Origin: an uncultured delta proteobacterium
GTDB taxonomy: Bacteria; Desulfobacterota; Desulfobaccia; Desulfobaccales; 0-14-0-80-60-11
Direction of reading: 5' to 3'
Length of the DNA stretch: 64,000 bases
Assembly: GCA_963797235.1 (NCBI GenBank)
Contig: CAWCOX010000004.1
Span: forward strand, 635,332-699,331
This document shows positions 17,139 to 51,182 of this stretch, piece after piece; position 1 is the first letter of the stretch, and each line of letters starts with the position of its first letter. Below the pieces are notes generated by a model. It ran no database searches, was not told where the DNA came from, and saw nothing but the letters and a program-made list of their open reading frames with translations. The translations under genes and the position numbers were made by a program.

Positions 17139-17190
17139 CGGTAGCGCCGGCTTCCAGCCTGTGCCGGCGCAGGCTGGAAGCCGGCGCTAC
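17139..17190. repeat. 22-bp perfect-stem palindrome (REP-like, GTAG head) inside the sxtJ-like/DUF5989 operon
   Basis: GGTAGCGCCGGCTTCCAGCCTG (17139-17160), 8-nt loop, CAGGCTGGAAGCCGGCGCTACC (17169-17190). The right arm resembles the GCGCAGGCTRAAGCCTGCGGCTAC units at 1571-1592, 7711-7730, 18630-18653, 49032-49055 and 59779-59805. Confidence 0.9.
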
Positions 17191-17199
17191 CATAAATCA

Positions 17200-17619: not shown

Positions 17620-17673
17620 GAAATCCTCGATAAAATGGTTATGAACAAACAGTGTTTCACTGCGGGCGATGAA

Positions 17674-17767
17674 AAATCCCCCCTCCCCCCCTTTTTCAAA
17701 GGGGGGTTTGCAAGTCCCCCTTTGGAAAAGGGGGATTTAGGGGGATTTAATATTTTCACGGTAAAGC
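17674..17767. repeat. MITE-like repeat, family A copy 4 (reverse orientation)
   Basis: AAATCCCCCCTCCCCCCCTTTTTCAAAGGGGGGTTTGCAAGTCCCCCTTTGGAAAAGGGGGATTTAGGGGGATTT followed by AATATTTTCACGGTAAAGC. Confidence 0.85.
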
Positions 17768-17966
17768 AAAAATGTGTAAAAGAGATCCTCGCTGTTCTTC
17801 AATGCTGATTTATGGTGCGGCCAGTGACTCATAGGGGAAATCGGAAATGGTTACCGCCTGATGTTTGCGGGCCTCATTTCGACTTTAGATTTATGGCATT
17901 ATCTTACACGAAATAAAATTTATTTCCAGGGTTTCTCGTCCCGAGCCCTGATCGACGGGAGGTAAC

Positions 17967-32365: not shown

Positions 32366-32601
32366 TCCTTTTCTTCTCCTGGTTATCTGCTATAATTCAC
32401 GACTTAGAATCAGGCGGGCGAGCCTGGGGCCCGCCACCCTTGAAATATTTTCAGCGTCTGAACCGGTCACGGTCGGCGCCGACTGATGACCGCCCCTGCC
32501 AATGGCTATTTCATATTATTTCATATAAGGATTTGGCGGAAAAAGCAAACGGCTGCACCGACCCAGAGGCTGGGCGCGGTGGCGCACCCAGGAGAACAGG
32601 T

Positions 32602-33798
32602 TTGACCCGGACTGAAAAAATTACCTGGCTCTTTTTTGGCGCCACCTCCCTCCAATTGGCCTTCCTCCAACCCTATATCATCCTGGTGCCGGGGGAGCAC
32701 AGCAACCTGTTTTCCGCGCTCCTCTGTTTCCTGAGCCTGATAGCGGCCCTGATCTTGATGGGGCGAGGCGCCATCAGATTTGGGTCCCCGGAGTTTTTGG
32801 TTTCGGTGGCCCTGGTGGCCCTGGGAGTGGCCAACGCCCTCAACAGTCTGCCTCTCCGCTCCCCGTCTTTCCGGCTGGCCGTCCTGTTGGCCTCGGGACT
32901 GGGAGGCTTCTGGTGTGCCAGATGCTTATTGCGTACCCCGGAAAATCAACGCCGCTTCCAATGGCTCTGCCTGGCGCTCCTGGGCGGCATCCTGGTCCTG
33001 AGCCTGACCGGATACCTGCTGAGGGGAGAAATCCAACCCCTGTTCTTTAAAGGTTCGAATCATCCCCTCACCAATTTGATCTTCCTGCTCTCTTTTGCCC
33101 CGCTGACCCTGTTGAGAGAGAAGTCCCGGCCTCTGGTGCTGTTGGGGGTGACCCTGCTGACCCTGAGCTATGTGGTGCTCTGCCTCAGCCAGCGCCTCTC
33201 GGTAGTCTTGATCCCGGTGGGTTTGGGAGTTGCGGGGCTGTTGTTCGGGACCGTGCGCTGGAAGCATGTGGTCGCGGGACTGCTGGTTCTCGGCCTGATT
33301 ATCGGCCTGTTTTCGCAGCAAATCCTCTGGTTCAAACTGAACAAGGCGTACCCCTCCTACCGCATCGAAAATTACTACTTCTCCTGGGGCATCGCCCGGC
33401 AGCACCCGATCCTGGGTATTGGCCTGAGCTCTCCCCGGGAGCAATTTTTGCAAGACTACCAAATTAGATATCCTTACGAGACCAAAGAAAAATTCGCCGG
33501 CGAACTGGCCGATATCCACACGCCCGACAATCAGCTCCTCACCTTTTTGTCCGGCCTGGGCTTTCCCTTCACGATCATTTATTTCCTGGCGGTCCTCGCC
33601 CTGCTGGTGAAACTCGTCGGTACGGCCTTCCGGCCGCCTCCGGGGCTCTATTTCCCGCCGCTGGCGCTCCTGTTTCCCTTGACCGCGGCCTTAATCCACT
33701 TCCAATTTTATGACGGGTTGCTGTTTCCTCAATCTTGCTGGTTTTTTCATATCCTGCTCGGTTTAATTCCACTGGCAAATGAAAAACGCCAACCATAA
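32602..33798 (+). CDS. O-antigen ligase / O-antigen polymerase (Wzy_C)-family membrane protein
   Basis: Multi-TM ORF with the family-typical periplasmic loop ..ADIHTPDNQLLTFLSGLGFPF. I prefer the in-frame TTG 32602 (AGGAG at 32590-32594) because the first 54 codons of the listed ORF (32440) are hydrophilic and non-membrane. Confidence 0.6.
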   Translation: MTRTEKITWLFFGATSLQLAFLQPYIILVPGEHSNLFSALLCFLSLIAALILMGRGAIRFGSPEFLVSVALVALGVANALNSLPLRSPSFRLAVLLASGLGGFWCARCLLRTPENQRRFQWLCLALLGGILVLSLTGYLLRGEIQPLFFKGSNHPLTNLIFLLSFAPLTLLREKSRPLVLLGVTLLTLSYVVLCLSQRLSVVLIPVGLGVAGLLFGTVRWKHVVAGLLVLGLIIGLFSQQILWFKLNKAYPSYRIENYYFSWGIARQHPILGIGLSSPREQFLQDYQIRYPYETKEKFAGELADIHTPDNQLLTFLSGLGFPFTIIYFLAVLALLVKLVGTAFRPPPGLYFPPLALLFPLTAALIHFQFYDGLLFPQSCWFFHILLGLIPLANEKRQP

Positions 33799-35135
33799 AA
33801 TAGCCGGCCGGCGCGGCAGCCTCACTTCCCCGCTAATGGCGGCCCTCCTCTTGCTGGCGCTCCCGGTCATCATCTTTTGGCGATCGGGCCTTTTTTACAT
33901 CATCGATGACTGGACCACCCTCATCCACATGGTGCAGTACCCTTTCGGGACCTACCTGGTGACGCCGGACGGCGAACAATGGTTCCCCTTTTTCAGCCTG
34001 GTTTATTATGGCCTGGTGCGGCTGGCCGGGGAGCATTACTCTTTTCTGGTCCTGGTCAATTGTCTGGGCACCGGCGCCAGCGCCTTTCTGGTTTACCTCT
34101 TCTACCGGCGCCACTTAGCCGCCGGCCCGGCTCTGACCCTGGCGGCCGTCTATGCCACGGCCGCGGTGCATCATGCCATCGCCTGGAACGCCTTCTACGT
34201 CGGCTACCTCCTCAGTCTGACCTTCTTTTTAGGGGCGCTGCTGCTCACGGATGCTTATCTCCGGGCCGGAGGCCGCGGCCTTTTGGGCGGCGTCGGCCTC
34301 TGCGCCTTGCTCTCGGTGCTGTCCCACAACTATCCGCTGCTGGGTCTCCTGGCCTTGCCTCTCTACGCCCTCCTGGTGCGGGGTGACTCCGGCCGGAAGT
34401 TTTGGGCCCTGGCCGGGACCGTGGCCGCGGTCTATCTCGTATTTGCGGCGGGCTACCTTACCTTTGCCGGGCTCCACGCCGCGGCCAGCCACAATGCCCG
34501 GGTCTTTGGCGGCCTGCCGGGGCCGGGCTACCTGTTACACCTGGTATATGCGGCCTGGCTGGCGCCCTTTTTCTATCTCTTTTGGGGCCATTACCACTTT
34601 CCGGTCTGGGCTTACGCGGCCGGTGTCGCCCTGCTCACCGCCACTCTGACCGGCATCTGGGGTTGGGGCGGGGCCCCCGGCGCGCCGCCTGGCCCTTTGG
34701 ACCCTGCTGGCCAATGCCCTGCCCTTTCTCTTGGTTTCCTTGACCCGCTATCAAATTTCGGTAAATCAGGCCTTTGTGGCCCGCTACGCCATCTTTACCC
34801 TCGTCGGGGCGCTTCTCCTGGTGGGACTGGCCTGGCGCGGGCTTGCGGAACGACTGCCCCCCAGGGATTGGCGGCGCCGGTTGCCCCTGGGCCTCCTGGC
34901 CCTCATGGTGGCTGGACAATTGCTGGCCCTCCCCCGCTGGACCGAGAAATACCGGGAGATGACCCGGGCGGCCCGAGCCTGTTACTATGTCCTGAGCCAG
35001 GAGACCGCCTCGGCCCGGCTGCCCCAGGAGGATTACCGGAAGTTCTGTCCCGGCGCCTACCCGGTCATCACCCCGAGCCAGGCACTGGCCGTTCGGCGCT
35101 TCCTGAACGGCCAGGGCAGGACCCCTGATTTTTAA
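33779..35135 (+). CDS. polytopic membrane protein of unknown function, one +1 frameshift in the C5 run 34674-34678
   Basis: 33779-~34676 (about 9 TM segments) joins ..GIWGWGGAP|ARRLALWTLLANALPFLLVSLTRYQ.. (34731-35135 frame) after removal of one C. The C-terminal soluble tail is ~90 aa. No catalytic motif recognised. Confidence 0.5.
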
Positions 35136-35535
35136 GGGTGCGGTCCCGGCGGCTTCTCGGTTTTTAGGGGTACATTTTGGAGGTTGCTTAACTTTAAAGC
35201 CGCCGACCGGTCTAAAATATTATGGTGGCCCGCCAGAAAAATGGCCTGATCATTAATTTATTTTCGTTTTTCTGCCGAAGAGTGACGAACTAGGCATTTT
35301 CAGGTGTTATTTAATAATGCGCTTAATTTCACTCTTTCTGAACATTTTCGTAAAGAAAATCGGGATATTTGCTTTTTAATGCTGGGTAAACCGAAAAAAA
35401 TCTGCTATACTTGGAGCGGTAAATTTGAGGAGAGGAGGCGTAATCACGGATTCGTAGCCGCAGAGACGATTTATACCTTATACCCGAGATTTAGCGCGAA
35501 AAACTCAAGTTAATTTTCTAAGTACAATGAATACC

Positions 35536-35564
35536 GTTGACTTTTTATCAAGATAGAAATAAAA
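35536..35564 (+). promoter_or_regulatory. weak sigma70-like promoter candidate upstream of the alpha-oxoamine synthase gene
   Basis: TTGACT (35536-35541), 17-nt spacer, TAAAAA (35559-35564). It sits inside a ~470-nt AT-rich gap. The -10 box lacks the final T, so support is modest. Confidence 0.3.
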
Positions 35565-35604
35565 AGGTGTAAATCTACCGGAGGGGGAGGGTAGAATCCT
35601 TATT

Positions 35605-36903
35605 ATGTCACTTAAAAACCGCTGCCAACCTTTTGCTCATATGGTCCGAGACGCCAGGGAACAGGGGATTTACCCTTACTTCCGGCCCATTGACCGATCT
35701 TGGGGCACAGAAGTGGAGGTGTCGGGCCGGCGTCTGATAATGATTGGCTCCAATGATTATCTGGGGTTCACCCATGATCCCCGGATAATCGAAGCGACAG
35801 CCAAGGCGGCGCTGCGCTGGGGGAGTGGACCGGGGGGGTCTCGCTTCCTGTGCGGCAACCTGACCTTGCATGAGAAGCTGGAGGAGCGCCTGGCCGCCTT
35901 TGTGGGCAAGAAAAAGGCGGTCGTCCACGCCACCGGCTTCACCACCAATCTGGGCGCCATCGCCTGCATGCTGACGCCGCAGGATGTCATCGTCTGCGAC
36001 CGGGAGAATCATGCCAGCATTTTCGAAGGCTGCCAGGCCTCCCGGGCCCGGTTGATTCCCTTTGGCCACAATGATGCCGCGGCCGCGGAACGGAAATTGG
36101 CGTCCGCCCGCCAGAAGAATGCCACCGGTTGCCTGTTCCTGATTACCGAAGGCGTCTTCAGCATGTCCGGGGATATGTCTCCCCTGGATGAATTGGTCAA
36201 ATTGAAGGAGACTTACCCGGATCTCCTCATTTATCTGGATGATGCTCACGGTCTGGGAGTGATGGGTGAAGGCGGCCGCGGGACCGCCCATCATTTCGGT
36301 CTCACCTCCCAGGTGGATTTCATCATGGGCACCTTCAGCAAGGCCCTGGCTTCCATCGGCGGCTTCATCGCCGCTGACGACGAAGACGTCCTGGAATACC
36401 TGCGGCACCATTCCAAACCCCTGATCTTTTCGGCGGCCTTGCCCGCCAGCAATGCCGCTACGGTCCTGGCCTGTCTGGATGTCTTGGATGCCGATCCCGG
36501 TCGGGTGACCCGGCTTTGGGATATTACTCGCCGGGTGCACCAGGGATACCAGGAAATCGGGGTGATCACCAAGCATTCCAAAACCCCCATCATTCCCATT
36601 TACGTCGGCGCCGAAGACAAGGCCTTCGTGTTCGCCAAGGACATGTTCGACCATGGCGTCTTCGCCCTGCCGGCTATCTATCCGGCAGTGCCCCGGGGTC
36701 AGGCGGTGATCCGCACCGCGTTCATGAGTACTCATAAAAAGAGCCAGATTGACTACGTTCTGGAAGTCATCGAAAAGCTGGCCAAGAAACATCGTATCCG
36801 GGCCTGCGATCTTGGCCAACCGGAAGCTTTTCTGGAGGGGGAAGGAATCTCCACCCCGGTAGCCGATATTTTGGACCAGACGATGGGCCTCGGCCGCGAG
36901 TAA
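35605..36903 (+). CDS. PLP-dependent alpha-oxoamine synthase, serine-palmitoyltransferase/KBL-like
   Basis: 432-aa ORF. IMIGSNDYLGF, GSGPGGSRFLCGNLTLHEKLEERLAAF, DDAHGLGVMGEGGRG, and the PLP-lysine motif GTFSKALASIGGF. GTFSK..GGF and GSR.L.G resemble Spt/KBL more than BioF (from remembered sequences). It has a ~35-aa acidic C-terminal extension. Confidence 0.85.
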   Translation: MSLKNRCQPFAHMVRDAREQGIYPYFRPIDRSWGTEVEVSGRRLIMIGSNDYLGFTHDPRIIEATAKAALRWGSGPGGSRFLCGNLTLHEKLEERLAAFVGKKKAVVHATGFTTNLGAIACMLTPQDVIVCDRENHASIFEGCQASRARLIPFGHNDAAAAERKLASARQKNATGCLFLITEGVFSMSGDMSPLDELVKLKETYPDLLIYLDDAHGLGVMGEGGRGTAHHFGLTSQVDFIMGTFSKALASIGGFIAADDEDVLEYLRHHSKPLIFSAALPASNAATVLACLDVLDADPGRVTRLWDITRRVHQGYQEIGVITKHSKTPIIPIYVGAEDKAFVFAKDMFDHGVFALPAIYPAVPRGQAVIRTAFMSTHKKSQIDYVLEVIEKLAKKHRIRACDLGQPEAFLEGEGISTPVADILDQTMGLGRE

Positions 36904-37383
36904 AGGGTGCGCTGACCTCAGGATAGAGAGGCCCGGCAGATAGATGGGCCACCGTGCAGAGTTGAGACCTTGCCCGGATTAGGGGGGATGGCCCGGGTAA
37001 GTGTCTCAGCGTCGGCCGGATGAATTAAAGATTTTTTTCGGCTAAACATTGCCGGGTGGTTTCCCATGGGTGATGCCGAGCAGCTCTTTGAGGCGCGATG
37101 ACTGCTCAGACACTATCCTTGGGGGGTTCTGCTGCCACCGGCGATTACCCAAGGGACAGGCCTTCCTCCGGATACATCTTTTCCATTCCAGCGGGACTTG
37201 CCACTCAATCTAGAGAATGGACGATGGATTTGAGGTTCAAGGCTTTGGCTGTTTTTTGAGGCGGCATGATTGCCGGTAGTTTTGCCAGGAATATGAAGGC
37301 CTTTGGGCCGAAGCGGGTGGCGGGCGCCAGTACTGCAAGCCTGCCCAGGGGTGAGGACGAGTTCCTTGAGATTTAATGACCTC

Positions 37384-38541
37384 ATGACGGTTAGTGTACG
37401 CCAGGTGATACGGCACCGCCGCCGCTACATGGGGGTAGTTTTGGCTATAGCCTTAGGCGTGGCCGGTTTCATCAACATCATCACCATGAGCCGGGAAGTC
37501 AAGAAGAACTTCAACGAAAATCTGGACCTGATTGGCGGGGTCACGGTTATCCGGCTATATTTCGACAATAGCCGTTCCTACCGGCCCCAGTGGTTCCGGG
37601 ACGACACCCTGGCAGCCTTGAGCCGCATCAAAGGCTTCAAGGAATTGAGCCTCACCGGTGAGAAGCCGGGCAATACCAACTGGCACGGGCAGCGCTACGG
37701 CTTCCACCTGATCGCGGTGGACGAGGCCTTCTGGGAGGTGCGGAATTTTTGGGCTCAAACCGGCAATCTCTTCGGGGCTGAGGCCGTCACGCAGCGCCGG
37801 CGGGAGTGTGTCCTGGGAGCTGAACTGGCCCGGAGGGTTTTCGGTACTAATGACGTCCGCGGCAGGACCATGGAGATCAATAACGAACTTTTTTGGATCT
37901 CGGGTGTCCTGGGGGGGGTTACCGACAGCAGCATAGCGAACTCAGCCTTCCTGCCCCTGACCACCGCGGCGGACCGCCTGTCTGGCCGGTTGCTCACTGA
38001 CCACGTCTTTCTCCGCGTCCAGACTTGGGATGATGTCGCCCGCGTCGCCGCGGCCATACCCGAGGCCATCAAATCCAGCCAATCTTCCGAAGAACTGCAC
38101 GTGGAGGTTGCCTGGGAGGGACTCAAACGGGTCCAGCAACTGGCCTGGTGGATTCAGTTTATGATCTATCTGGCCATCAGCGCCACTTTCCTGTTGGGGG
38201 GCGTGGGCATCTGGAACGTCATGATGGCCGCCGTGGTCACCCGCACCCGGGAAATCGGCTTGAAGAAGGCCATGGGGGCGGAGGACAAAGATATCCTGGC
38301 CCAGTTTCTGTCCGAGGCCCTCTGTCTCAGTCTGGGAGCCGCGTTGGTGGGCGGCTTGGTGGGGCGGATCGGGACGGAGATCCTGGGCCACGTGATTGGC
38401 AGCCGTCCGGCGGAAAATCTTTTCTTCATGGGTCTGTCCCTGGGATTTCTGTTTGCCGTGATTTTAGGGGTGGGCGCCGGCCTTTATCCCTCTATCCGGG
38501 CCAGCCGCATGGAAGTGGTATCTGCTATACGCTATGAGTAA
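37384..38541 (+). CDS. ABC transporter permease, FtsX/MacB type
   Basis: N-terminal TM (YMGVVLAIALGVAGFINII), ~230-aa periplasmic domain, then three TM helices with the FtsX-domain segment TREIGLKKAMGAEDKDILAQFLSEA. An in-frame TTG at 37366 (GAGGA upstream) is an alternative start. Confidence 0.8.
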   Translation: MTVSVRQVIRHRRRYMGVVLAIALGVAGFINIITMSREVKKNFNENLDLIGGVTVIRLYFDNSRSYRPQWFRDDTLAALSRIKGFKELSLTGEKPGNTNWHGQRYGFHLIAVDEAFWEVRNFWAQTGNLFGAEAVTQRRRECVLGAELARRVFGTNDVRGRTMEINNELFWISGVLGGVTDSSIANSAFLPLTTAADRLSGRLLTDHVFLRVQTWDDVARVAAAIPEAIKSSQSSEELHVEVAWEGLKRVQQLAWWIQFMIYLAISATFLLGGVGIWNVMMAAVVTRTREIGLKKAMGAEDKDILAQFLSEALCLSLGAALVGGLVGRIGTEILGHVIGSRPAENLFFMGLSLGFLFAVILGVGAGLYPSIRASRMEVVSAIRYE

Positions 38542-39244
38542 CTCGATTTCTGTCAGCCCCGCCGCCAATGGGGCCCTGGTCCAGGTCTCCAATCTCACCA
38601 AGACGTACCAAACCGAGGCGGGGACCATCCAGGTTCTTAAAGATATCAACCTGAAGGTCTATGCCGGCGAGATCGTGGCGGTGATGGGGCCTTCCGGTTC
38701 CGGCAAGTCTACTTTTCTCTTCATTCTGGGGATCTTCATCAGTCCTACCATGGGAACCTACATTCTGGCGGGCCAGGACGTGCTGCGTCTGGATCGCAAC
38801 GCCCAGGCCGAATTCCGGCGCAACCGGGTGGGCTTCGTCTTTCAAAGCTGCGATCTATTGGAACATTCCACGGTCTATGAAAACCTGGAATTTCCCCTGA
38901 TCTACGCCGGGGTCGAGCGTCGGGAGCGCCCGGATCGTATTGCCGCAGCCCTCGATTTAGTGAATCTGGGGCACCGCATTCATCATTCCTCTAATCGTCT
39001 GTCCGGCGGTGAACGCCAGCGGGTAGCGGTAGCGCGGGCCCTGGTTAACCAGCCGCAGGTCATCCTGGCGGACGAACCCACCGGTCAGTTGGACCGGAGC
39101 CATGGCCACCAGGTTATGGACCACTTTGCCGAGATCGTCAGCAAGAGCAATACGTCCGTAATCGTGGTAACCCACGACCCCGAAATGGGGGCCAGGTGCA
39201 CCCGGGTTTGCTCAATGCGGGACGGGGTCCTTTATGAGCAATAA
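38534..39244 (+). CDS. ABC transporter ATP-binding protein (MacB/LolD type)
   Basis: Walker A GPSGSGKST, Q-loop, signature LSGGERQRVAVARAL, Walker B VILADEPTGQLD, H-loop VVTHD. Overlaps the permease stop by 8 nt. Confidence 0.9.
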   Translation: MSNSISVSPAANGALVQVSNLTKTYQTEAGTIQVLKDINLKVYAGEIVAVMGPSGSGKSTFLFILGIFISPTMGTYILAGQDVLRLDRNAQAEFRRNRVGFVFQSCDLLEHSTVYENLEFPLIYAGVERRERPDRIAAALDLVNLGHRIHHSSNRLSGGERQRVAVARALVNQPQVILADEPTGQLDRSHGHQVMDHFAEIVSKSNTSVIVVTHDPEMGARCTRVCSMRDGVLYEQ

Positions 39245-39346
39245 CCTCTGGATTTACCAGGACGCCTCTTAACCCGATGGTCATGGCAGAGGCCTTCGCG
39301 CACCCACGGGACCTCCGGGGTCAGCAGTCTGCCGGCGGGCGAGCTT

Positions 39347-40705
39347 GTGTGCCAGAGTAGCCGCGGGCTGCCGGCCATCCTGGCCATAGCCTTTTTGGCT
39401 CTGCTCCTGGGACTGCTGCCGGCGGCCGCTCAGCCCGCCTGGGCTGCCGAAGCCGGCCCCACCGACGCCAAGGCTGCCGTCCCGGGCCTCCTTGACTTTG
39501 ACGGCTGCGTCAGGTTGGCCATCCAGCAGTCGCCCTATTTGACCAAAAGCGCCGTGGAGATCGATATCCGGCGGATGAATGAGAGTGACAGCCGTTACTC
39601 CATGATTCCGCCACCCATGACCTTCCGCACCTTTTACTATGTGGACCGGCCTCAACAGCCCGGCCTCAATCCCAAGCCCTATAGTCTCAGTTTTTCCATG
39701 GACCCCTGGAACCCCGTGGGGTCCTATTTTAGCCTGCAGGCTGAAAAGGTGGCCACCCAGATGGCGATCTTGGCCCATCTCCAAGCGATTAACGCCGGTT
39801 TGGAGCGCCTCGGCAAGATGTTTCTGCACCTGGCCTCCATGAACCGCCTGGTGGTCTTTCAGAGAGACCTGATCAACCTGTGCCGGGAGAAACTGACCTA
39901 CGCTGAAAACCGCCGGACCATCGGCACCGGCACCTCCCTGGAGGTCCAGATGGCTGCCCAGGAGTTGGAGTTGGCCAAGAACGAGCAAGGGCAGCTGGAA
40001 CTCACCCGGAAGCGCACCCTCAGCAACTTGAAAACCTTTTTGGGTCTGAAACCCGAGCAACAGGTGGAATTCGATTTGCGGGACGCCCACCGCCAGGTAT
40101 TGGGCAGCTTCGATCCAACCGCCGCTACCCTGGAGCAGGCGAAAGCGAGATCTTTTGAACTCAAGAGTCTGGAGATGAAGAAGGAGCTGCAGGGATATAA
40201 CGTTACCTTAGCCAAGACCAAAATTCTTCCCGATCTCCTGTTTAATACCCAGACTCCCGACCCCTTAAGCGTCACCAGCGCCAGAGGCCTTTACGTGGGT
40301 CTGGGTCTGCAGGTGCCGGTCTGGGATGGCTTAAAGCGGTTTCGTAATATCTCGCGACAAAAGGCCGTCTTAAAGCAGGTCGGCAATGAAAAAGACATGA
40401 AAGAGATCGATCTGGCCGACAAATGGAGCGAACTCCAGGAAAATATTGGTAACAGCGCGGCCGGCCTGAAGATCACCAAGTCCCAGGAAGAACTGACGCG
40501 CCTGAAGGAGCGCCAGGCCGAAATCTTCTACAATTCCGGAACTGACCAACTTCCCGCCTGGTTGGATGCCCGGAAGGCCAGCCTGGAGGCGCAAAAAAAT
40601 TCCTTCACCAAGGCGTTGGAATATGACGATCTTATCCTGAATTTGCGTCAATTTTCTGGAGATCTGGGTACTAGCTATGTGGATCAGAAATCCTGGCAAA
40701 AGTAG
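39347..40705 (+). CDS. TolC-family outer-membrane efflux protein
   Basis: Signal peptide LPAILAIAFLALLLGLLPAAAQPAWA. Two-repeat OEP-like organisation with long helical segments (..LERLGKMFLHLASMNRLVVFQRDLINL.., ..LEAQKNSFTKALEYDDLILNLRQFSG). Confidence 0.7.
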   Translation: MCQSSRGLPAILAIAFLALLLGLLPAAAQPAWAAEAGPTDAKAAVPGLLDFDGCVRLAIQQSPYLTKSAVEIDIRRMNESDSRYSMIPPPMTFRTFYYVDRPQQPGLNPKPYSLSFSMDPWNPVGSYFSLQAEKVATQMAILAHLQAINAGLERLGKMFLHLASMNRLVVFQRDLINLCREKLTYAENRRTIGTGTSLEVQMAAQELELAKNEQGQLELTRKRTLSNLKTFLGLKPEQQVEFDLRDAHRQVLGSFDPTAATLEQAKARSFELKSLEMKKELQGYNVTLAKTKILPDLLFNTQTPDPLSVTSARGLYVGLGLQVPVWDGLKRFRNISRQKAVLKQVGNEKDMKEIDLADKWSELQENIGNSAAGLKITKSQEELTRLKERQAEIFYNSGTDQLPAWLDARKASLEAQKNSFTKALEYDDLILNLRQFSGDLGTSYVDQKSWQK

Positions 40706-41664
40706 AGCCGCCGCGGTCCTGGGAACATTCCTGGTCCTGGCGATTTTGACCGCCGTCCCGGCCCTGGGCAATCCCAAGGGCGAAGGCAGCCCGGCGGCGC
40801 CGCCCGGCCGCCCCGGCCGCCCCGGCCGCCCCGGCCTCAGAACCCGAGATCAGCTTTAACGGCAAGGTCTTTTGTTCCTTGAAACGCCGGGTGGACCTGC
40901 CTTTCAAAGGCATCATCACCTCGATCCTGGTCCGTTCCGGAGAGCGGGTGGAGGCCGGCCAGGTCCTGGCCAGATATCGCCTGACCCCGGAAGCCCAAAT
41001 CGTGATTCGCCAGCGCCTGTCGCCGCCGGCCCTTTCCGATGGCGAAATTAAATTGGCGGAAACTGAACGGAGTATGGTGCCGCTGCAAAACCGGCAGCGG
41101 GAATTGACCCAACTGGCGCAAAAGAAGTTGGCCCCGCCCCAGAGCCTCGAGCAGGTCAACCAGGATCTCCGCCTGCTTACCCAAGAGCGCAGCGCCCTGC
41201 AAAACCGGCTGCGTCAGGACCGCCAGTCACTCCAGGATGACCGGATAATTTTGAAGCAGCAACTGGGAAAGGGCATCAGCTCCGGACAGATTCCCCAAGA
41301 AGCGGCTTTGATCGCCCCCATCGCCGGATACATTATCTGGATCAGTCCGGACCTGCAGAATGGGGCCGAGTTGCCCCCCACTCCCGGCGTCTTCCAGGTG
41401 GGAGCGATGGATCCCATGGTGGTGCGGGCCCAGGCCTTTGAAATCGAGGCCTTGCAGATTAAGCCCGGGGAAACCGCCGAGGTCACTCTGGAATCCCTCC
41501 CCGGTCGGAAATTCCAGGGACAGGTGAGCCGGATCTCCTGGTCCTCCCTCACCCCCGGTCTGGAACAACCGGCCTACTACGATGTGGAATTAAAGGTGTC
41601 CAACCCTGATCTGTTGCTAAAAGACGGGTTAAAGGCCCAAATCGTCTTTCGTGATCATCAATAA
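40677..41664 (+). CDS. periplasmic adaptor (HlyD/MFP-like), one +1 frameshift near 40800 inside a 9-bp tandem repeat
   Basis: Signal/anchor MWIRNPGKSRAAAVLGTFLVLAILTAVPALG and a Pro/Ala linker. The +1 frame then gives EPEISFNGKVFCSLKRRVDLPFKGIITSILVRSGERVEAGQVLARY (lipoyl-like), a coiled coil (QRELTQLAQKKL..LRLLTQERSALQNRL) and a beta-barrel (AEVTLESLPGRKFQGQVSRIS). Confidence 0.7.
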
Positions 41665-41679
41665 AGAGGTAAGAAATTA

Positions 41680-42816
41680 ATGGCAGCAAACGGGGAGATC
41701 CTCGTATCTCCCGTTCAAGATGAGGCCGGCCTCCAGGAATTTATGCGCTTCCCCTGGCGCCTCTATAGTCAGGACCCTTACTGGGTGCCGCCTTTATTGC
41801 CCGAACAGCGGAAGTTCCTGGACCCCCGCCGGGGTCCTTTCTTTGAAATCGGCGAGGCCCAATATTTCCTGGCCTACCGCCAGGGCGAGCCCGTGGGGCG
41901 GATCTCGGCCCACCTCAACCGGCGCCATGATGAATTTCATGGAGCGGAAACCGGCTTTTGGGGCTTTTTTGAAGCCATCCAGGACCAGGAGGTCGCCAAC
42001 GCCCTGTTCGAGGCGGCAGCCGCCTGGCTGCGCCAACGCGGCCGCAGCCGCCTGGTGGGCCCGCTCAATTTTTCCATCTACGACGAAATGGGCCTGCTGA
42101 TCGAGGGCTTCGACTCCATGCCGGCCATGTTCCAGACCCACAATCCCCCCTACTATGCGGATCTGGTCGCCTCCTGGGGCTTTCGCAAGGCCATGGACTG
42201 GGTGGCCCTCAAGATAACCGACCGCAAGGTCGACGTCCCGGCCATGGAGCGGCGTCTGGATGAGATCCTGACCAAGCAAAAGGTGACGCTGGCCCCTTAC
42301 AATCCTCGGGAGTTGGCGCGGCGGGCCGAGGAGGTCTTCCACCTGTTCAACGAGGCCTGGAGTGTCAACTGGGGCCATGTCCCCCTGAGCCGCCAGCAGT
42401 TCGATCATCTGTTGCACGAAGTCAAACCGTTGCTGCGGCCCGAGTTGGTCCATATGCTGCTGGACGGCGATAAGCTGGTGGGCTTCGGCATCGTCTTGCC
42501 GGACCTGAACCCGGTGGTCCAGCAACTCAACGGCAGCTTAGGCCTTTGGAGCAAACTGCGCCTGCTCTACGCCGCCAAATTCGCCCCCATCCGCAAGGTG
42601 AGGGCCATGGTCATCGGCATCGCCCAGCCCTACCAGCTAAAAAGGCTGAACTATGCCATATTCTTGAGGACTTACATTTACTTGATTAAACACACGCCTT
42701 GCGATTTTGCCGATTTTTCCCTGATCCCTGAAAATCTCCGCCACTGGATCAAGGTGATCCAGGCCTTCGGCGGCCAAACCTATAAGACCTTCCGGGTATT
42801 TGAAAGAGAAATCTGA
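41680..42816 (+). CDS. GNAT-like acyltransferase-fold protein of unknown specificity
   Basis: 378-aa ORF with a good RBS (AAGAGG). N-terminal W..Y..DP.WVPPL..E....LDP..PFF......YFLAY..GEPVGRISAHLN recalls a widespread uncharacterised family usually annotated as N-acetyltransferase. Call from memory; no acceptor can be inferred. Confidence 0.45.
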   Translation: MAANGEILVSPVQDEAGLQEFMRFPWRLYSQDPYWVPPLLPEQRKFLDPRRGPFFEIGEAQYFLAYRQGEPVGRISAHLNRRHDEFHGAETGFWGFFEAIQDQEVANALFEAAAAWLRQRGRSRLVGPLNFSIYDEMGLLIEGFDSMPAMFQTHNPPYYADLVASWGFRKAMDWVALKITDRKVDVPAMERRLDEILTKQKVTLAPYNPRELARRAEEVFHLFNEAWSVNWGHVPLSRQQFDHLLHEVKPLLRPELVHMLLDGDKLVGFGIVLPDLNPVVQQLNGSLGLWSKLRLLYAAKFAPIRKVRAMVIGIAQPYQLKRLNYAIFLRTYIYLIKHTPCDFADFSLIPENLRHWIKVIQAFGGQTYKTFRVFEREI

Positions 42817-42833
42817 TTTTTTGCCTCCAGGGC

Positions 42834-44636
42834 TTGAAACCGCTTTGCTCCCCGATGCCGCCACATATGACTTTGCCTATTATGCCGCATGAGCTCGAAT
42901 CCCCGCAGCGTGAGAGATGGCCGGGGTATGCCGCGGTATTCGATCTGCTGATAGTCCTGATCCTCTCGGACATCATCTTTCTCCTGGCCCATCTCTCGGC
43001 CCTGTCCAGCCCCTACGTCGTCAACGACGACGTCCGCCAGCAGCTCTTCTGGATGCAGCAATGGCTGGACCCGGCACTGTTTCAGGGCGATTTGCTGGCT
43101 GAATACGCCCGCCATTACGTCCCCTGGGGCGTCAAGGGCCTTTACTGGTTGGCTTCCTGGATCTCGGACCCCATCGCCTTTTCTAAGTTCATGACCGGTA
43201 TCCTGTTCGTTTTCCTGTCTCTCTGCCTCTATCTGATCGGCTTGAGACTGGGGGGCCGCCGCCTGGCCTGGACCACCCTGGCAGTCTACTGGCTCATGCC
43301 CTTTTTCCTGGACAATATGTCGGGGGGCCTGGCCCGGGCCTTCGCCGCCCCGCTCCTGGCCTGGTTCTGGCTCTCCTGGCAGGAGGACTGGCCCCGGGGT
43401 ATGGCCGCCGCGCTCATCCTCCAGGCCCTGTTCATTCCCTACGTCTTCATGGTCACCGCCCTGGCCGTCGGACTCGCCTGGCTGGCAGGCCGCACCGGCA
43501 GGCTGGCGCCGCCGCCGTTTCCGGCGCGGCCGGTTCATTTTCTCCTGCTGGCCGGCGGCGCCGTCCTGGTGGGGCTGATGAACTTCAGTTACGCCCACGA
43601 CGGCTTCGGCCCCCTGGTGAGCTACGCCGACATGGTGAACCGGCCGGAGTTTTACGCCCGGGGACGCTTTCCCATCCTGCCGGTGCCCACCATCTTCTGG
43701 CAACTTCTCGCCCCCTGGGAATATATTGCCCCCTTCCGGGATTTGGGACCGGTGGCCGCCTACACGGTCTGCGCCATCCTCCCCCTGGCGGCCGTCTGGG
43801 GCCTTTCCCGCACCGACTGGCGCAGCCTGGCGGCCCGGCTCCGACCCCTCTGGTATCTGCTCCTGGCCGGCGCGGTCCTCTATCTCCTGGCCTGGGTCTT
43901 TTTGCTTAAGCTCTTCATTCCGGACCGCTACCTCATCTACACCATTAATCTGGCCTATTGTCTCATCCTGGCCCTGGGCCTGCACGCCGCCCTGAAGGTG
44001 GAAGGGTGGCCCAGGAACCTGGCCGTCCTGGTCCTGGTGGCCGCCGCCGGCCTGGGTTATCTGCGCCTGAAAGACGTGGGTCTGAAGGACTATGGGGTCT
44101 ACCGGCCGCTTTACGCCGCCCTGGCCGATACCCCCAAGGATGCGGTCATTGCCGGGCATCCCAACCTGATGGACAATGTCCCCACCTTTGCCCGGCGTCG
44201 GGCCCTGGTCACCTACAAGCTGGCCCATCCCTGGAGCCAAGGCTACTGGCAACAGATCGAACCCCGGCTGGAGGACCTGTTCGCGGCCTATTACGCGGCC
44301 GACCCCCAGGAAGTGGTCGCTTTTTGCCGCAAGTACCAGGTCTCGTTCCTGGTGGTGGACGACCGCCATTTCACCCCGGAGTTTCTGGCCGGCGGCCGCT
44401 TTTTCGTCCCCCTGGACCGCAAGGTTCCCAGGTTCTGGCGCAAGACCCTGGCCGATCGGGTGGACTGCCCCTTTTTCGCCCCTTTTGACCGGCTGATCGC
44501 CCGGCTGACCCAGGGCCGACATCAATTCGCCCTGCTGGCCTCGCCGCTCTTTGCCGCCGTCAGACTGGACGAGCACCTGCGGCTGCTGGATATGCGCCCC
44601 TGGTTGACCAAAGCCCCGGCGCCTCAACCCGGCTAA
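42834..44636 (+). CDS. large polytopic membrane protein with C-terminal soluble domain (GT-C-like architecture)
   Basis: ~600-aa ORF. About 11 TM segments, then a ~190-aa hydrophilic domain. An acidic pair in the first extracytoplasmic loop (SSPYVVNDDVRQQLFWMQQW) is placed as in GT-C glycosyltransferases. The start is uncertain (TTG 42834 or ATG 42855). Confidence 0.5.
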   Translation: MKPLCSPMPPHMTLPIMPHELESPQRERWPGYAAVFDLLIVLILSDIIFLLAHLSALSSPYVVNDDVRQQLFWMQQWLDPALFQGDLLAEYARHYVPWGVKGLYWLASWISDPIAFSKFMTGILFVFLSLCLYLIGLRLGGRRLAWTTLAVYWLMPFFLDNMSGGLARAFAAPLLAWFWLSWQEDWPRGMAAALILQALFIPYVFMVTALAVGLAWLAGRTGRLAPPPFPARPVHFLLLAGGAVLVGLMNFSYAHDGFGPLVSYADMVNRPEFYARGRFPILPVPTIFWQLLAPWEYIAPFRDLGPVAAYTVCAILPLAAVWGLSRTDWRSLAARLRPLWYLLLAGAVLYLLAWVFLLKLFIPDRYLIYTINLAYCLILALGLHAALKVEGWPRNLAVLVLVAAAGLGYLRLKDVGLKDYGVYRPLYAALADTPKDAVIAGHPNLMDNVPTFARRRALVTYKLAHPWSQGYWQQIEPRLEDLFAAYYAADPQEVVAFCRKYQVSFLVVDDRHFTPEFLAGGRFFVPLDRKVPRFWRKTLADRVDCPFFAPFDRLIARLTQGRHQFALLASPLFAAVRLDEHLRLLDMRPWLTKAPAPQPG

Positions 44637-44654
44637 TTAGATATTGGAGGACCC

Positions 44655-45677
44655 ATGGCCCATAAACATCGGTTTATCTTCGAAGGCTCGGGCCGCTCCC
44701 TGGCCAAGGAAGCCTGGCGCTTCCTGGGCCGGGGCGACCTTCTCGGCCAACTCCACGGAGAGCTGGTGGATCGGTACCTCACCCTGCTCCAGCGGCCGCA
44801 ATCGCGGCTCCAGGCCCGCCTGCGCCTGATTAATATCGAGCCCACCAACTATTGCAATCAACGTTGCCGGTTCTGCGCCACCGGGCTCAATACCAATAAA
44901 CGGCCCAAGGGCAAGATGGACCTGGCCACCTTCCGGAAGATCGTGGCCCACGTGCCCAGGGGCTGCACCATCATGTTGGCGGGGTTCGGGGAGCCCTTTG
45001 TGAATGAAAATATGGAGGCCTTCCTGGAGGAGATCGCCGGCCGGGGACTCGCCGACCGGTTGGAACTCTATTCCAATTTCGGCGTCATGACCGAGTCCCG
45101 GGTCCGCGCTCTACTGGATCATCCCTTCCGGCGCATCATTGTTTCCCTGGATTCCATGAGCCGGCAGACGTTTATCGAGCAGAAAGGAGTGGATGAGTTC
45201 GACCGGGTGTGGGACAACCTCAAAGTTCTGGCGGATGAAGTGAAACAGCGGGGCAGTGTCCCGCAAAAGCTCATCGTCCAGATGATCGTCACCAGGAAGA
45301 CCGCCCACGAACGCCAGCGTTTTCTGGACACCATCGGCAGCCTCAACCTGACCCCGAGGCTCAAACTGGTGAACGTCCATAGCCCGCGCTTCAATGAGGC
45401 CCAGATCAAAGAATTTGAGGTCGAGGGCATGTCGCGCTATCGCCGCTCCGGTTATTCCCGGCGCTGCGAATGGGTTTGGGGGGGAATGATGGTCTACTGG
45501 AACGGCGATGTCACCCTGTGCTGCCAGGACCCCACCGGGCTGAGCACCTATGGCAGCGTCCACCAAGACGACGTGCCGTCCCTGCTGAACACCGTCCCGG
45601 GCCGCTGCGAATTCCGCCGGCGCTACTTCGAGGACCCGTCCCAGATCGACATCTGCCGGAACTGCGACATTGCCTGA
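44655..45677 (+). CDS. radical SAM enzyme with SPASM/twitch-like C-terminal Cys motif
   Basis: GGAGG RBS. INIEPTNYCNQRCRFC (CxxxCxxC), AGFGEPF glycine motif. C-terminal WNGDVTLCCQDP..GRCEF..DICRNCDIA. Confidence 0.8.
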   Translation: MAHKHRFIFEGSGRSLAKEAWRFLGRGDLLGQLHGELVDRYLTLLQRPQSRLQARLRLINIEPTNYCNQRCRFCATGLNTNKRPKGKMDLATFRKIVAHVPRGCTIMLAGFGEPFVNENMEAFLEEIAGRGLADRLELYSNFGVMTESRVRALLDHPFRRIIVSLDSMSRQTFIEQKGVDEFDRVWDNLKVLADEVKQRGSVPQKLIVQMIVTRKTAHERQRFLDTIGSLNLTPRLKLVNVHSPRFNEAQIKEFEVEGMSRYRRSGYSRRCEWVWGGMMVYWNGDVTLCCQDPTGLSTYGSVHQDDVPSLLNTVPGRCEFRRRYFEDPSQIDICRNCDIA

Positions 45678-45738
45678 ATCTTTGGGTGGGCCAGCCGATT
45701 TTTCCCATCCCGATCATTAGCCGATAAAGAGAAACCTT

Positions 45739-47313
45739 ATGAAAGTCTTGTTGCTGAACCCTGAAATGCCCGGCGCCTTCTGGTCTTTCAAGGAAACCTG
45801 TAAGATCGCGGGAACCAAGGCGCTCCTGCCCCCTTTAGGGTTGCTTACCGTGGCGGCGCTTTTCCCTCAGGAATGGGAATACCGTTTAGCGGACCTGAAC
45901 ACCGGGAAAAAACTCACCACGGCAGACTGGCAATGGGCTGATCTGGTGATGATCTCCGGGATGATTATCCAGAAGCTGGGGGTTCTGGCCCTGATTCGAG
46001 AAGCCAAGTCCCGGGGCAAGACCGTGCTCGTGGGCGGACCCTACGCCACCTCCCTGCCCGAGGCAGTGCTGGCGGCTGGGGTTGATTTTCTGGTACGCGG
46101 CGAAGGGGAAAATACCATTCCCCTGCTGCTGGCAGCCATGTCGGCAGGCGAGAAGACGGGGGTCTTCCAGGCCGCGGACAAACCGGATATGGCCCTGTCG
46201 CCGGTGCCCCGTTTCGACCTGCTGAACCTGGAGGATTATAATATCTTGGGCATCCAAACCTCCCGGGGCTGCCCCTTCGATTGTGAATTCTGTGATGTGG
46301 TCAATCTCTTCGGCCGGGTGCCTCGCTACAAATCACCGCAGCAGGTCCTGGCGGAGTTGGAGGCATTGTACCGCCTGGGATGGCGGGGCGGGGTCTTTAT
46401 CTGCGACGACAATTTCATCGGCAACAAGGACCATACCCGCGCCATCCTGGGGCAATTAACCCCCTGGATGAAGGAACACGATGATCCCTTCGGCTATTGG
46501 ACCCAGGCCTCGGTCAATCTGGGCCAGAATACGGAAATAATCGATCTGTTGACCGCCGCCAATTTCGGCACCATCTTTCTGGGCGTCGAGACTCCGGATG
46601 AGGAATTGCTGAAACTGAACCGGAAATACCAGAACCTCAGCACTCCCGCAGCCCAATCCCTCACCACCATCACTGCCAATGGCCTGACCCCGATGGCCAG
46701 TTTTGTCATCGGCTTCGACCACGAAAAGCCTGGAGCCGGCGAGCGGATCTGTCAATTCGTCGAAGAAAACCACATCCCCCTGGTGATGCTTAATACCCTG
46801 TATATCCTCCCCAACACCAGTCTGTGGCAGCGGCTCCAGGCAGAGGGCCGTCTCCGGGAAGTCTCGACCTCAGGGGACGTGTACCAACTGGGAGGATTGA
46901 ATTATCTGCCGGATCGCCCCGAAGCGGAGATCCTGAGGGAATACGTGCAAACCGTAGACCGTCTCTATGAACCTTCAAGGTTCCTGGCCCGGGCCTACCA
47001 GCAAATCCTGACCATGCGGCCGACCCGGCGGCAGATGAAAATCCAGGCCGGCCAGAAAAGCCCAGCCCGCAAAAAAGCCCAATTGCCCTGGCGCAAACAG
47101 GTCAAAGATTTGCTGGCGCTGGTAAAGCTCGTCTGGCGCCAGGGGATTTGGGCCGGCTGCCGCGGGCAGTTCTGGCGGCAATTATGGGGGGTATATCGGA
47201 AAAACCCAAGCCGGCTGAGACGTTACATCGTAATTTGCGCCTTGGGCGAATCAGTTTTCGGACTCAGGAGGGAGGTGCTGCGCCAAGCGGCCGGCAAGGG
47301 GATAACCTATTGA
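45739..47313 (+). CDS. B12-binding-domain radical SAM protein (with DUF4070-like C-terminal region)
   Basis: N-terminal cobalamin-binding-type Rossmann segment (MKVLLLNP..PPLGLLTVAALFP..DLVMISGM..VLVGGPYAT). Radical SAM core TSRGCPFDCEFCDV. ~130-aa basic C-terminal extension. Confidence 0.85.
   Translation: MKVLLLNPEMPGAFWSFKETCKIAGTKALLPPLGLLTVAALFPQEWEYRLADLNTGKKLTTADWQWADLVMISGMIIQKLGVLALIREAKSRGKTVLVGGPYATSLPEAVLAAGVDFLVRGEGENTIPLLLAAMSAGEKTGVFQAADKPDMALSPVPRFDLLNLEDYNILGIQTSRGCPFDCEFCDVVNLFGRVPRYKSPQQVLAELEALYRLGWRGGVFICDDNFIGNKDHTRAILGQLTPWMKEHDDPFGYWTQASVNLGQNTEIIDLLTAANFGTIFLGVETPDEELLKLNRKYQNLSTPAAQSLTTITANGLTPMASFVIGFDHEKPGAGERICQFVEENHIPLVMLNTLYILPNTSLWQRLQAEGRLREVSTSGDVYQLGGLNYLPDRPEAEILREYVQTVDRLYEPSRFLARAYQQILTMRPTRRQMKIQAGQKSPARKKAQLPWRKQVKDLLALVKLVWRQGIWAGCRGQFWRQLWGVYRKNPSRLRRYIVICALGESVFGLRREVLRQAAGKGITY

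Positions 47314-49004: not shown

Positions 49005-51182
<2,178 letters not shown>

Follow-up and report, generated by a model that had tools for sequence, protein, structure and literature searches.

An operon of an uncultured Desulfobaccales bacterium that may couple ceramide-type lipid synthesis to periplasmic modification and tripartite-pump export

The window analysed here, a 64-kb stretch of DNA from an uncultured member of the Desulfobaccales related to sulfate reducers, carries an operon that probably couples ceramide-type lipid synthesis to periplasmic modification and to export by a tripartite pump; judging from sequence and gene order, we put the probability of this reading at roughly 0.6. 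The preliminary description had proposed that the genes build a sphingolipid-like lipid for the envelope, tailor it and export it, which fits the Spt-like α-oxoamine synthase (AOS), the bacterial ceramide synthase (bCerS) homologue, the pump and the syntenic GT-C gene. Its suggestion that the system is undescribed stands only in part. The chemistry of the Spt and bCerS core belongs to a characterized pathway, and the system is therefore not wholly undescribed, whereas its coupling to a pump and a GT-C protein is new.

The open reading frames previously listed for the cluster were found at their positions on the + strand, where all parts of the operon lie, and were assigned to Pfam families; we count nine + strand genes rather than ten. 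When the junctions were re-measured, the permease stop and ATPase start overlapped by 8 nt (38534/38541), about 102 nt separated the ATPase gene from the outer-membrane factor (OEP) gene, and the other gaps were 15, 17, 18 and 61 nt. The same-strand layout with short junctions thus holds, with one correction: a non-coding spacer of about 480 nt (36904–37383) splits the AOS gene from the permease gene. This spacer occurs only in the subclade of the window, being patchily conserved, with 1-nt indels, in loci L004, L087 and L088; in L001 and L002 it is missing, and just 8–25 nt separate the two genes. An Rfam search of the spacer found nothing, and a Pfam search with its minus-strand 90-aa open reading frame gave no match. 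The AT-rich gap noted ahead of the cluster is real (35129–35604, about 476 nt) and is presumed to hold the promoter or leader of the operon. GC content is about 0.52 in the 35–36 kb bin, compared with about 0.63 elsewhere in the window, and a terminator-like hairpin (35112–35127) closes the upstream gene. A long 5′ gap of about 472 nt is also present in L004, L087 and L088; Rfam gave no match for 35129–35604. As described before, glycan genes lie on both flanks, with GT4, GT2 and Wzy_C upstream and an epimerase/dehydratase, Bac_transf, GT4 and GT2 downstream.

The first gene (35605–36903) encodes a 432-aa protein of the Pfam family Aminotran_1_2 (6e-48), and several comparisons support the earlier assignment as Spt-like, closest to the serine palmitoyltransferase of the CFB type. 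Among NCBIfam models NF047600 (serine palmitoyltransferase, CFB type) scores highest, with 442 bits where the cut-off is 640, above the BioF/Kbl subfamily (362 bits), BioF (345) and KBL (337); the protein reaches the curated cut-off of none of the Spt equivalog models. The top PDB match is Sphingobacterium multivorum Spt (334 bits), with KBL at about 217, BioF at about 194 and CqsA a distant match at 111 bits. Its PLP-lysine motif, FSK, is kept, as are DDAH and HASI. A neighbour-joining tree, with weak deep nodes (18–66%), places the protein inside a Desulfobacterota clade with 100% support, nested among bCerS-adjacent AOS proteins, S. multivorum Spt and a plasmid Spt, and leaves Escherichia coli Kbl and BioF outside.

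The second biosynthetic gene (41680–42816; Pfam GNAT) encodes a 378-aa tandem-GNAT N-acyltransferase. Its homologue on a Klebsiella michiganensis plasmid, an N-acetyltransferase (31% identity over 377 aa, E 3e-66), adjoins spt-acp-cerR-aasR and is oriented divergently from this spt-acp-epimerase-acylAMP ligase set, and a 35% identical Roseomonas gene follows two LptF/LptG genes. These full-length plasmid homologues (31–35% identity) hold the cerS position of Caulobacter-type sphingolipid clusters, and both layouts agree with the published Caulobacter locus (PMC11324152; bioRxiv 10.64898/2026.04.12.717747); the link to Caulobacter CCNA_01212 runs through these syntenic plasmid orthologues rather than through direct alignment. 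An AF2 model (pLDDT 75) has the tandem-GNAT fold. What had been a hint at ceramide synthase from a ‘GNAT-like’ protein is thus supported as membership of the bCerS family. An AOS gene is near the GNAT homologue in 53 of 84 loci; an epimerase-family gene, whose product is 24% identical over its full length to the plasmid CerR, is found in 42 of the 84 and a PAP2_3 gene in 24. In about 40 loci, drawn from many phyla, the homologue directly adjoins an AOS, often together with the CerR-like reductase and PAP2_3 genes, which makes the known Spt and bCerS pathway the most likely identity of the biosynthetic core.

Between the two biosynthetic genes lie the parts of a pump, and Pfam and NCBIfam bear out the earlier reading of a split MacB-type exporter with TolC and adaptor. 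The FtsX-type permease with a periplasmic core domain (37384–38541; MacB_PCD 2.5e-21, FtsX 1e-16; NCBIfam MacB 2e-25) has an open reading frame that opens at 37303; we take 37384 as the start, with TTG 37366 a possible alternative, and orthologues are 391–407 aa long. The ATPase (38534–39244; ABC_tran 1.3e-33) matches MacB, LolD, DarD and DevA-type models at 176–227 bits. The TolC-like outer-membrane factor (39347–40705; OEP 7e-27, in two stretches) is followed by a periplasmic adaptor, or membrane fusion protein (40677–41664; HlyD_D23 7.9e-16, HlyD_3). Alignment with intact orthologues of 323–326 aa shows that it is frameshifted in the window. It is divided into a signal-peptide frame (40677–40859) and a body frame (40879–41664, whose first start codon is TTG 40879), and the shift falls inside a 9-nt repeat, GCCGCCCCG, present 4.3 times at 40799–40836 (Tandem Repeats Finder); within it the window carries 16 nt more than L088 and L004 and 7 nt more than L087, resulting in a net frameshift. 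As to the reported 40677/40705 overlap, the ATG at 40677 does overlap the OEP stop at 40705, but the adaptor body is in another frame.

The next gene (42834–44636; 593 aa if counted from the database start at 42855) encodes a 600-aa integral membrane protein that matched no Pfam or NCBIfam model. Its AF2 model (pLDDT 81.5, pTM 0.84) retrieved STT3, AglB, PglB, DPY19, AftA and ArnT with Foldseek (E 8e-8 to 1e-3, at TM-scores of only 0.4–0.5), which agrees with the earlier ‘GT-C-like’ label and supports a predicted GT-C fold and a putative glycosyltransferase. Close homologues all share N57-D58-D59, which follows TM1; D59 and D79 are kept throughout the family, some members of which carry fused GT2 or GT4 domains. 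The two radical-SAM genes beyond it had been counted in the unit, which the comparison does not uphold. The Radical SAM/SPASM gene (44655–45677; Radical_SAM 1.1e-13, SPASM 1.2e-07; no NCBIfam model close to cut-off) is confined to the window and L087, a 96% relative, and the B12-binding radical-SAM gene (45739–47313; DUF4070 1e-36, B12-binding 1.2e-14, Radical_SAM 2.2e-12) is found in 5 of 15 loci. Homologues of the latter lie directly 3′ of the GT-C gene in L087, L088, L002 and L009, the last with three copies, and the remaining loci have none. The slot varies from 0 to 3 copies per locus, and these genomes hold many such paralogues; the radical-SAM genes are accessory and outside the conserved unit.

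The permease, ATPase and TolC-like genes stand between spt and bcerS in 15 Desulfobacterota loci, the TolC-like gene at the same position in all of them, and in most the adaptor and GT-C genes (the latter in 13) complete a tight seven-gene operon. The order AOS-permease-ATPase-OMF-adaptor-bCerS-GT-C, with junctions that overlap or nearly abut, is found in L001, L002, L004–L009, L012, L013, L087 and L088; it is partial in L003, L010 and L011, and L011 lacks both adaptor and GT-C gene. Because the same order recurs in 15 loci from the Desulfobaccales and Desulfovibrionales, counted as independent, it is beyond chance. AOS, pump, GNAT and GT-C genes are thus syntenic across two orders of Desulfobacterota, with bCerS identity among the pump loci down to 43%.

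In loci beyond this clade the pump is absent and spt lies right next to bcerS, so the pump genes are an insertion. It might be an efflux or envelope-glycan cassette that entered in an ancestor and has been passively inherited, its pump and GT-C protein having no functional tie to the lipid genes and the pump serving detoxification or polysaccharide or protein export. That the locus lies within a glycan-biosynthesis island in several lineages, and that L011 has lost the adaptor and GT-C gene, would suit this explanation, which we nevertheless consider unlikely. An unrelated cassette that parted the two genes of one pathway should have decayed or moved, but the order persists with overlapping stop and start codons across two orders and down to 43% bCerS identity, and sphingolipid loci of other taxa also have dedicated transporters, LptF2G2 and the Myxococcus MmpL (bioRxiv 10.64898/2026.04.12.717747).

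Alternatively, the AOS and N-acyltransferase might make a small amino-lipid or N-acyl amino-ketone, a signal or antibiotic-like compound comparable to CAI-1 or N-acyl amino acids, that the pump expels with no outer-membrane insertion. Secreted peptides, toxins and siderophore-like compounds are common cargo of MacB-type pumps, the models matched by the ATPase include those of darobactin and bacteriocin exporters, and the window has neither CerR nor a head-group transferase. AOS enzymes do produce CAI-1-type signals, but this one is far nearer Spt than CqsA (334 versus 111 bits), genuine sphingolipid clusters have a member of the acyltransferase family at the cerS position, and an envelope glycolipid is the product suggested by the co-conserved GT-C protein and by the glycan genes on the flanks; we regard a secreted product as improbable. 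Least credible, and very improbable, is a housekeeping KBL- or BioF-type AOS in a cluster unconnected with long-chain bases. Scores under every Spt cut-off, the 337–362 bits on KBL and BioF models and the chance that the AOS-adjacent epimerase-family gene of other phyla is an SDR-type threonine dehydrogenase speak for it. However, tdh and bio genes are absent from the window, Spt models and structures give the top scores, E. coli Kbl and BioF lie outside the clade in the tree, and the AOS consistently has a bCerS-family partner, to which a PAP2_3 gene resembling head-group transferases is often added.

Like the Spt/bCerS/CerR pathway of Caulobacter crescentus (CCNA_01220/01212/01222), Bacteroides and others, the window unites an Spt-like AOS with an acyltransferase of the bCerS family in one operon, a pairing that many phyla show near CerR-like and PAP2_3 genes. 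It differs in that its AOS scores under the curated Spt cut-offs, four pump genes split the two biosynthetic genes, and CerR, the specialized ACP (AcpR) and the acyl-ACP synthetase (AasR) are missing; a search of the 64 kb for CerR, ACP, acyl-ACP synthetase and PAP2 homologues found none, in keeping with the earlier statement that ACP, ketoreductase, bio gene and peptide precursor are absent. MacAB-TolC, LolCDE and DevBCA-HgdD are MacB-superfamily ABC systems with periplasmic or outer-leaflet substrates, including heterocyst glycolipids. The window pump shares with them the FtsX four-helix permease with MacB periplasmic core, ATPase, HlyD-type adaptor and OEP channel, and DevA and DevB models are among its NCBIfam matches. 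Yet its equivalog scores are all far under the cut-offs (for MacB, for example, 89 versus 966), it divides permease and ATPase between two polypeptides, which E. coli MacB does not, its adaptor is frameshifted and its genomic partner is a sphingolipid pathway. ArnT, PglB/STT3, DPY19 and AftA are GT-C glycosyltransferases that work on the periplasmic or luminal side of the membrane and use polyprenyl-phosphate donors. The window protein matches their fold in prediction, with conserved acidic residues after TM1 and a C-terminal soluble domain, and in L013 a GtrB/ArnC-sized GT2 gene (320 aa) lies directly 3′ of the GT-C gene; by sequence it is in no Pfam or NCBIfam family.

We propose that the Spt-like PLP enzyme would, by homology, condense an amino acid (serine, or alanine if 1-deoxy bases are made) with an acyl thioester to a 3-keto long-chain base, which the bCerS homologue, given its family and conserved pairing, would N-acylate in the cytoplasm to 3-keto-dihydroceramide. 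A ceramide reductase may be encoded elsewhere in the genome, or the product may remain in the keto form. Some flippase would carry the lipid to the periplasmic leaflet, where the GT-C protein, going by its fold, may modify the head group from a polyprenyl-phosphate-linked donor, with a lipid acceptor as for ArnT. Permease/ATPase, adaptor and TolC-like channel would then take the lipid out of the inner membrane and pass it on to the outer membrane or the cell surface, as operon position and analogy with LolCDE and DevBCA-HgdD suggest. The alkyl chains might conceivably be tailored in some strains, by B12-radical-SAM enzymes numbering one to three and, where it is present, a SPASM enzyme.

MacB-type pumps are usually tied to peptides, toxins, lipoproteins or glycolipids, and we know of none for which sphingolipid transport has been demonstrated. 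The Desulfobacterota count among the candidate producers of sphingolipids (PMC11334938), and sphingolipid transport is expected to vary by taxon; LptF2/LptG2, whose deletion phenotype is synthetic-lethal or spt-dependent, is the transporter in Caulobacter, and MmpL, next to spt, is proposed in Myxococcus (bioRxiv 10.64898/2026.04.12.717747). Those loci likewise include a dedicated membrane transporter, beside bcerS, whereas the permease in the window is of the type VII (MacB/FtsX) ABC kind and comes with an ATPase, an adaptor and a TolC-like channel of its own, and LptF/G homologues are absent from it and from all 84 loci. How sphingolipids get to the bacterial outer membrane is still largely unknown, hence the interest of this operon, whose pump is a candidate for a third route of bacterial sphingolipid transport.

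Nine consecutive open reading frames occupy the plus strand between 35.6 and 47.3 kb, one fewer than the ten genes counted in the preliminary description. Pfam searches identified them, in order, as a class I/II aminotransferase-fold alpha-oxoamine synthase (AOS; 35605-36903, Aminotran_1_2 6e-48), a MacB_PCD and FtsX permease (37303/37384-38541; MacB_PCD 2.5e-21, FtsX 1e-16), an ABC ATPase (38534-39244; ABC_tran 1.3e-33), an OEP outer-membrane factor (39347-40705), the body of an HlyD-type adaptor (40879-41664), a GNAT protein with a weak N-terminal match (41680-42816), a 600-aa membrane protein without a Pfam match (42834-44636), a radical SAM protein with a SPASM domain (44655-45677) and a B12-binding radical SAM protein with DUF4070 (45739-47313). 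Those homologues that carry a name are from metagenome-assembled genomes (MAGs) of Desulfobaccales. A convergent HAMP-cyclase gene ends the cluster, and glycan-biosynthesis genes flank it on both sides, as had been reported; the gene junctions had also been quoted correctly. The AT-rich gap noted 5' of the cluster measures ~476 nt and lies downstream of a terminator-like hairpin (35112-35127). Hairpin and gap set the operon apart from two plus-strand genes just 5' of it, a Wzy_C (O-antigen-ligase-like) gene (32440-33798) and a 449-aa T-rich ORF without a Pfam family (33779-35128), whose position is kept in Desulfobaccales loci and not in Desulfovibrionales loci.

Homologues of the GNAT-like protein (378 aa) number more than 1,700. 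Structure prediction gave a tandem GNAT fold (pLDDT 75), which would be compatible with an N-acyltransferase and does not in itself indicate a substrate. PDB sequence searches with this protein, with the 600-aa membrane protein and with both radical-SAM proteins returned no informative match. A scan of species-representative genomes gave at least 572 relatives of the GNAT-like protein in many phyla, and we compared gene order in 84 loci (80 fetched from the scan and four from contig look-ups; individual loci carry L numbers below). An AOS lies within the locus of the GNAT homologue in 53 of the 84, an NAD-epimerase-family gene in 42 and a PAP2_3 gene, encoding a PAP2-superfamily membrane protein, in 24; outside Desulfobacterota, the homologue directly adjoins the AOS in ~40 of these loci. 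On a Roseomonas plasmid, a homologue with 35% identity over its full length is found immediately 3' of two LptF/LptG genes, with an AOS, an acyl-AMP ligase and an epimerase-family gene close by. A Klebsiella michiganensis plasmid carries a homologue (31% identity over 377 aa, E 3e-66) transcribed divergently from an spt-ACP-epimerase-acylAMP-ligase operon, equivalent to spt-acp-cerR-aasR. In Caulobacter, cerS (CC_1154 / CCNA_01212) adjoins lptG2 and lptF2, and spt-acpR-cerR-aasR are the ceramide genes (PMC11324152; bioRxiv 10.64898/2026.04.12.717747). The two plasmid layouts reproduce this arrangement, with the Roseomonas homologue at the position of CCNA_01212. We therefore assign the GNAT protein, through its plasmid homologues, to the bacterial ceramide synthase (bCerS) family and class the AOS as Spt-like, both assignments being predictions from sequence and gene order. 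In six Cloacimonadota loci (L033, L038, L045, L046, L056 and L079) the bCerS homologue is followed by a PAP2_3 gene and there is no AOS within 10 kb, in agreement with a published remark that the Spt-like genes of Cloacimonadota lie apart from bCerS.

The AOS is a fold-type I PLP enzyme in which the catalytic Lys, His and Asp motifs of the AOS family are kept, and its FSK (Lys246), DDAH and HASI motifs align with those of S. multivorum Spt. Its best NCBIfam family is the CFB-type serine palmitoyltransferase NF047600 (442 bits, with a cut-off of 640); the other Spt models gave 339 bits (NF047599, cut-off 500) and 256 bits (NF047603, cut-off 670), and the cut-off was reached for none of these three equivalog models. 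Against PDB sequences, S. multivorum Spt scored 334 bits and other types 111-275 (Thermus-type AOS 275, cysteate acyltransferase 223, KBL ~217, BioF ~194, CqsA 111). In a bootstrapped neighbour-joining tree, built with a fast distance method, the enzyme falls in a Desulfobacterota clade with 100% support, which is itself placed among bCerS-adjacent AOS, S. multivorum Spt and the plasmid Spt, with E. coli Kbl and BioF outside; the deep nodes are weak (18-66%). Judging by the HMM and PDB rankings, by the lack of any tdh or bio gene in the window and by the tree, we set aside BioF or KBL as an unlikely identity; the NCBIfam models for these gave 362 bits (BioF/Kbl subfamily), 345 bits (BioF) and 337 bits (KBL).

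The association of AOS and pump put forward in the preliminary description recurs in 15 loci, where spt and bcerS are separated by the four pump genes and bcerS is followed by the gene for the 600-aa protein. These loci belong to Desulfobaccales, Desulfovibrionaceae or Desulfovibrionales, plus one other deltaproteobacterial MAG; their junctions are overlapping or near-abutting, and bCerS identity among them extends down to 43%. More distant bCerS loci, including those of other Desulfobacterota, are without the pump, and its insertion therefore marks one clade. In one locus, L011, neither the adaptor nor the 600-aa gene is present. The permease and ATPase are of MacB type (type VII ABC), as judged from their MacB_PCD, FtsX and ABC_tran matches.

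The OEP gene is intact in the window. The preliminary description gave an overlap at 40677/40705; the adaptor body is intact but is cut off from its signal peptide, which is encoded in another frame (ATG at 40677, stop at 40859). Alignment with intact orthologues (321-326 aa in the relatives) places the frameshift at 40799-40836, inside a 9-nt tandem repeat, GCCGCCCCG x4.3, that codes for a Pro/Ala-rich linker. The copy number of this repeat varies among relatives (2, 3 or ~4), and the window version, with 16 nt more than L088 and L004 and 7 nt more than L087, all close relatives of the window locus, carries a net frameshift. Either the gene is a true pseudogene or the assembly contains an indel. 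In L004 (an 88% relative), the Spt-like gene at 3881-5180 is called as two halves of 212 and 213 aa, which is likely to be another assembly frameshift. On the minus strand of the window, the epimerase or GDP-mannose-dehydratase-like genes of the downstream glycan block, at 49005-49952, 50099-50734 and ~50784-51158, look N-terminally truncated or fragmented, and this suggests further indels in the window assembly. Because other genes (the L004 AOS and a dehydratase-like gene split at 50.1-51.2 kb) are also fragmented, we consider a true pseudogene no more likely than an assembly indel.

A spacer of ~480 nt (36904-37383) separates the AOS and permease genes, and it is found only in the subclade of the window (L004, L087 and L088). 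Its conservation is patchy, with 1-nt indels, and it is therefore probably non-coding; a 90-aa minus-strand ORF (37113-37385) has no Pfam match. A riboswitch or small RNA in the leader or in this spacer was rejected, with no Rfam match at E<=1, and promoter and terminator scans gave nothing above shuffled expectation.

The 600-aa protein belongs to no Pfam or NCBIfam family, the sole match being to Dpy19 (E 0.077), and the membrane domain of 25 distant members is likewise without a family match. Its AF2 model, a confident one (pLDDT 81.5, pTM 0.84), gave Foldseek matches to STT3, AglB, PglB, DPY19, AftA and ArnT (E 8e-8 to 1e-3, TM-scores 0.38-0.51), and the protein is thus predicted to have a GT-C fold, with a multi-helix membrane domain and a periplasmic C-terminal domain. 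The residues N57-D58-D59, after the first helix, are invariant in close homologues; across distant members there is no variation at D79, and D59 is kept in at least 90%. These residues are candidates for the acidic catalytic motif that GT-C enzymes carry in their first extracytoplasmic loop. The family is large (2,527 representative clusters at E<=1e-3; 738 at E<=1e-30), and a few relatives are fused to GT2 or GT4 domains. In L013, from a Desulfovibrionales MAG, a 320-aa GT2 gene (12951-13913) lies directly 3' of the GT-C gene and is followed by two asparagine-synthase-like genes and then a GT4 gene, and a PMT_2-like GT-C gene (1408-3057) lies 5' of the seven-gene core. Donor synthases of the GtrB/ArnC type pair with GT-C enzymes, and the placing of the L013 GT2 gene recalls such a pairing.

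What follows the GT-C gene is variable. The window and L087 have a SPASM and a B12 radical-SAM gene in this slot, L088 and L002 have one B12 gene, and L009 has three tandem B12-binding radical SAM/DUF4070 paralogues (12959-17783) directly 3' of the GT-C gene, 53-59% identical to the window gene; in the other ten of the 15 loci the slot is empty. Between L088 and the window the core is ~93% identical and the B12 gene 63%. Given this variable content (0-3 B12 copies) and lower identity, the radical-SAM genes, which the preliminary description included in the cluster, are accessory. Both window enzymes carry the expected domains in Pfam (B12-binding and radical SAM; radical SAM and SPASM), and NCBIfam placed neither in a functional subfamily (best scores 76-89 bits, cut-offs 251-400). 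We rejected a role of the SPASM gene as a RiPP or peptide maturase, as there is no precursor ORF, its junctions are 18 and 61 nt, and the gene is present in two loci only. A class B radical-SAM gene without DUF4070 is found directly 5' of bcerS in a Syntrophaceae MAG (L018 3989-5299), and another near bcerS in a second deltaproteobacterial MAG (L011 12909-14351), which hints at a recurrent link between B12 radical-SAM genes and bcerS in anaerobes. The radical-SAM enzymes might conceivably tailor the lipid. A second radical SAM and SPASM gene lies on the minus strand within the upstream glycan block (27774-28988); the two SPASM genes of the window share only 21% identity, and a recent paralogy between them was therefore rejected.

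Homologues of CerR, ACP, AasR, PAP2 and LptF/G are absent from the 64-kb window, and tblastn with the Roseomonas LptF and LptG gave no significant match in the window or the 84 loci. The epimerase genes at 49-51 kb form part of the glycan block and do not resemble CerR. Beyond the homology and synteny that we observe, we infer the transport and modification steps. Spt-like condensation would take place in the cytoplasm, bCerS would then N-acylate the product, and a flippase would move the lipid to the periplasmic leaflet, where the GT-C protein would modify its head group at the periplasmic face before the MacB-type tripartite pump extracts and exports it. LolCDE and DevBCA-HgdD are examples of MacB-family systems, whose substrates lie in the periplasm or the outer leaflet. 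Taken jointly, the permease, ATPase, adaptor and TolC-like channel may form a dedicated, Lpt-independent exporter of sphingolipids to the outer membrane, the GT-C family may glycosylate ceramide on the periplasmic side ahead of its export, and the B12/SPASM slot may contribute unusual alkyl-chain chemistry; we give this combined reading roughly one chance in three. If so, the pump would add a third route in bacteria to LptF2G2 and the proposed MmpL, and the slot chemistry could include the acyl groups, methylated or very-long-chain, of the 1-deoxyceramides that have been ascribed to Desulfobacterota in euxinic waters. The finding is real and its core, including the core chemistry, is a known pathway; what is new is its conserved coupling to a tripartite pump, together with a GT-C family that is itself new.

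Bacterial sphingolipid synthesis by Spt, bCerS and CerR has only recently been worked out, and how the products cross the envelope is a standing question. On the strength of Spt-like genes and of correlations with lipid abundance, Desulfobacterota have been named as likely producers of sphingolipids (PMC11334938); as of 2024, no transporter for such lipids had been identified (PMC11087976). A 2026 preprint has since implicated LptF2/G2 with LptB in Caulobacter, and predicts alternatives that differ by taxon, for example an MmpL adjoining spt in Myxococcus (bioRxiv 10.64898/2026.04.12.717747). These LptF/G paralogues are the sole studied case of transport, and the preprint anticipates differences in other taxa. 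Our limited literature search turned up no publication in which a MacB-type pump or a GT-C protein is associated with spt and bcerS. The operon is a conserved, testable candidate for another route in anaerobic Desulfobacterota, one that relies on a MacB-type tripartite pump. Through this operon a large GT-C-fold family without a Pfam model is linked to lipid modification, and genome data are connected with the abundant, structurally odd sphingolipids reported from anoxic waters.
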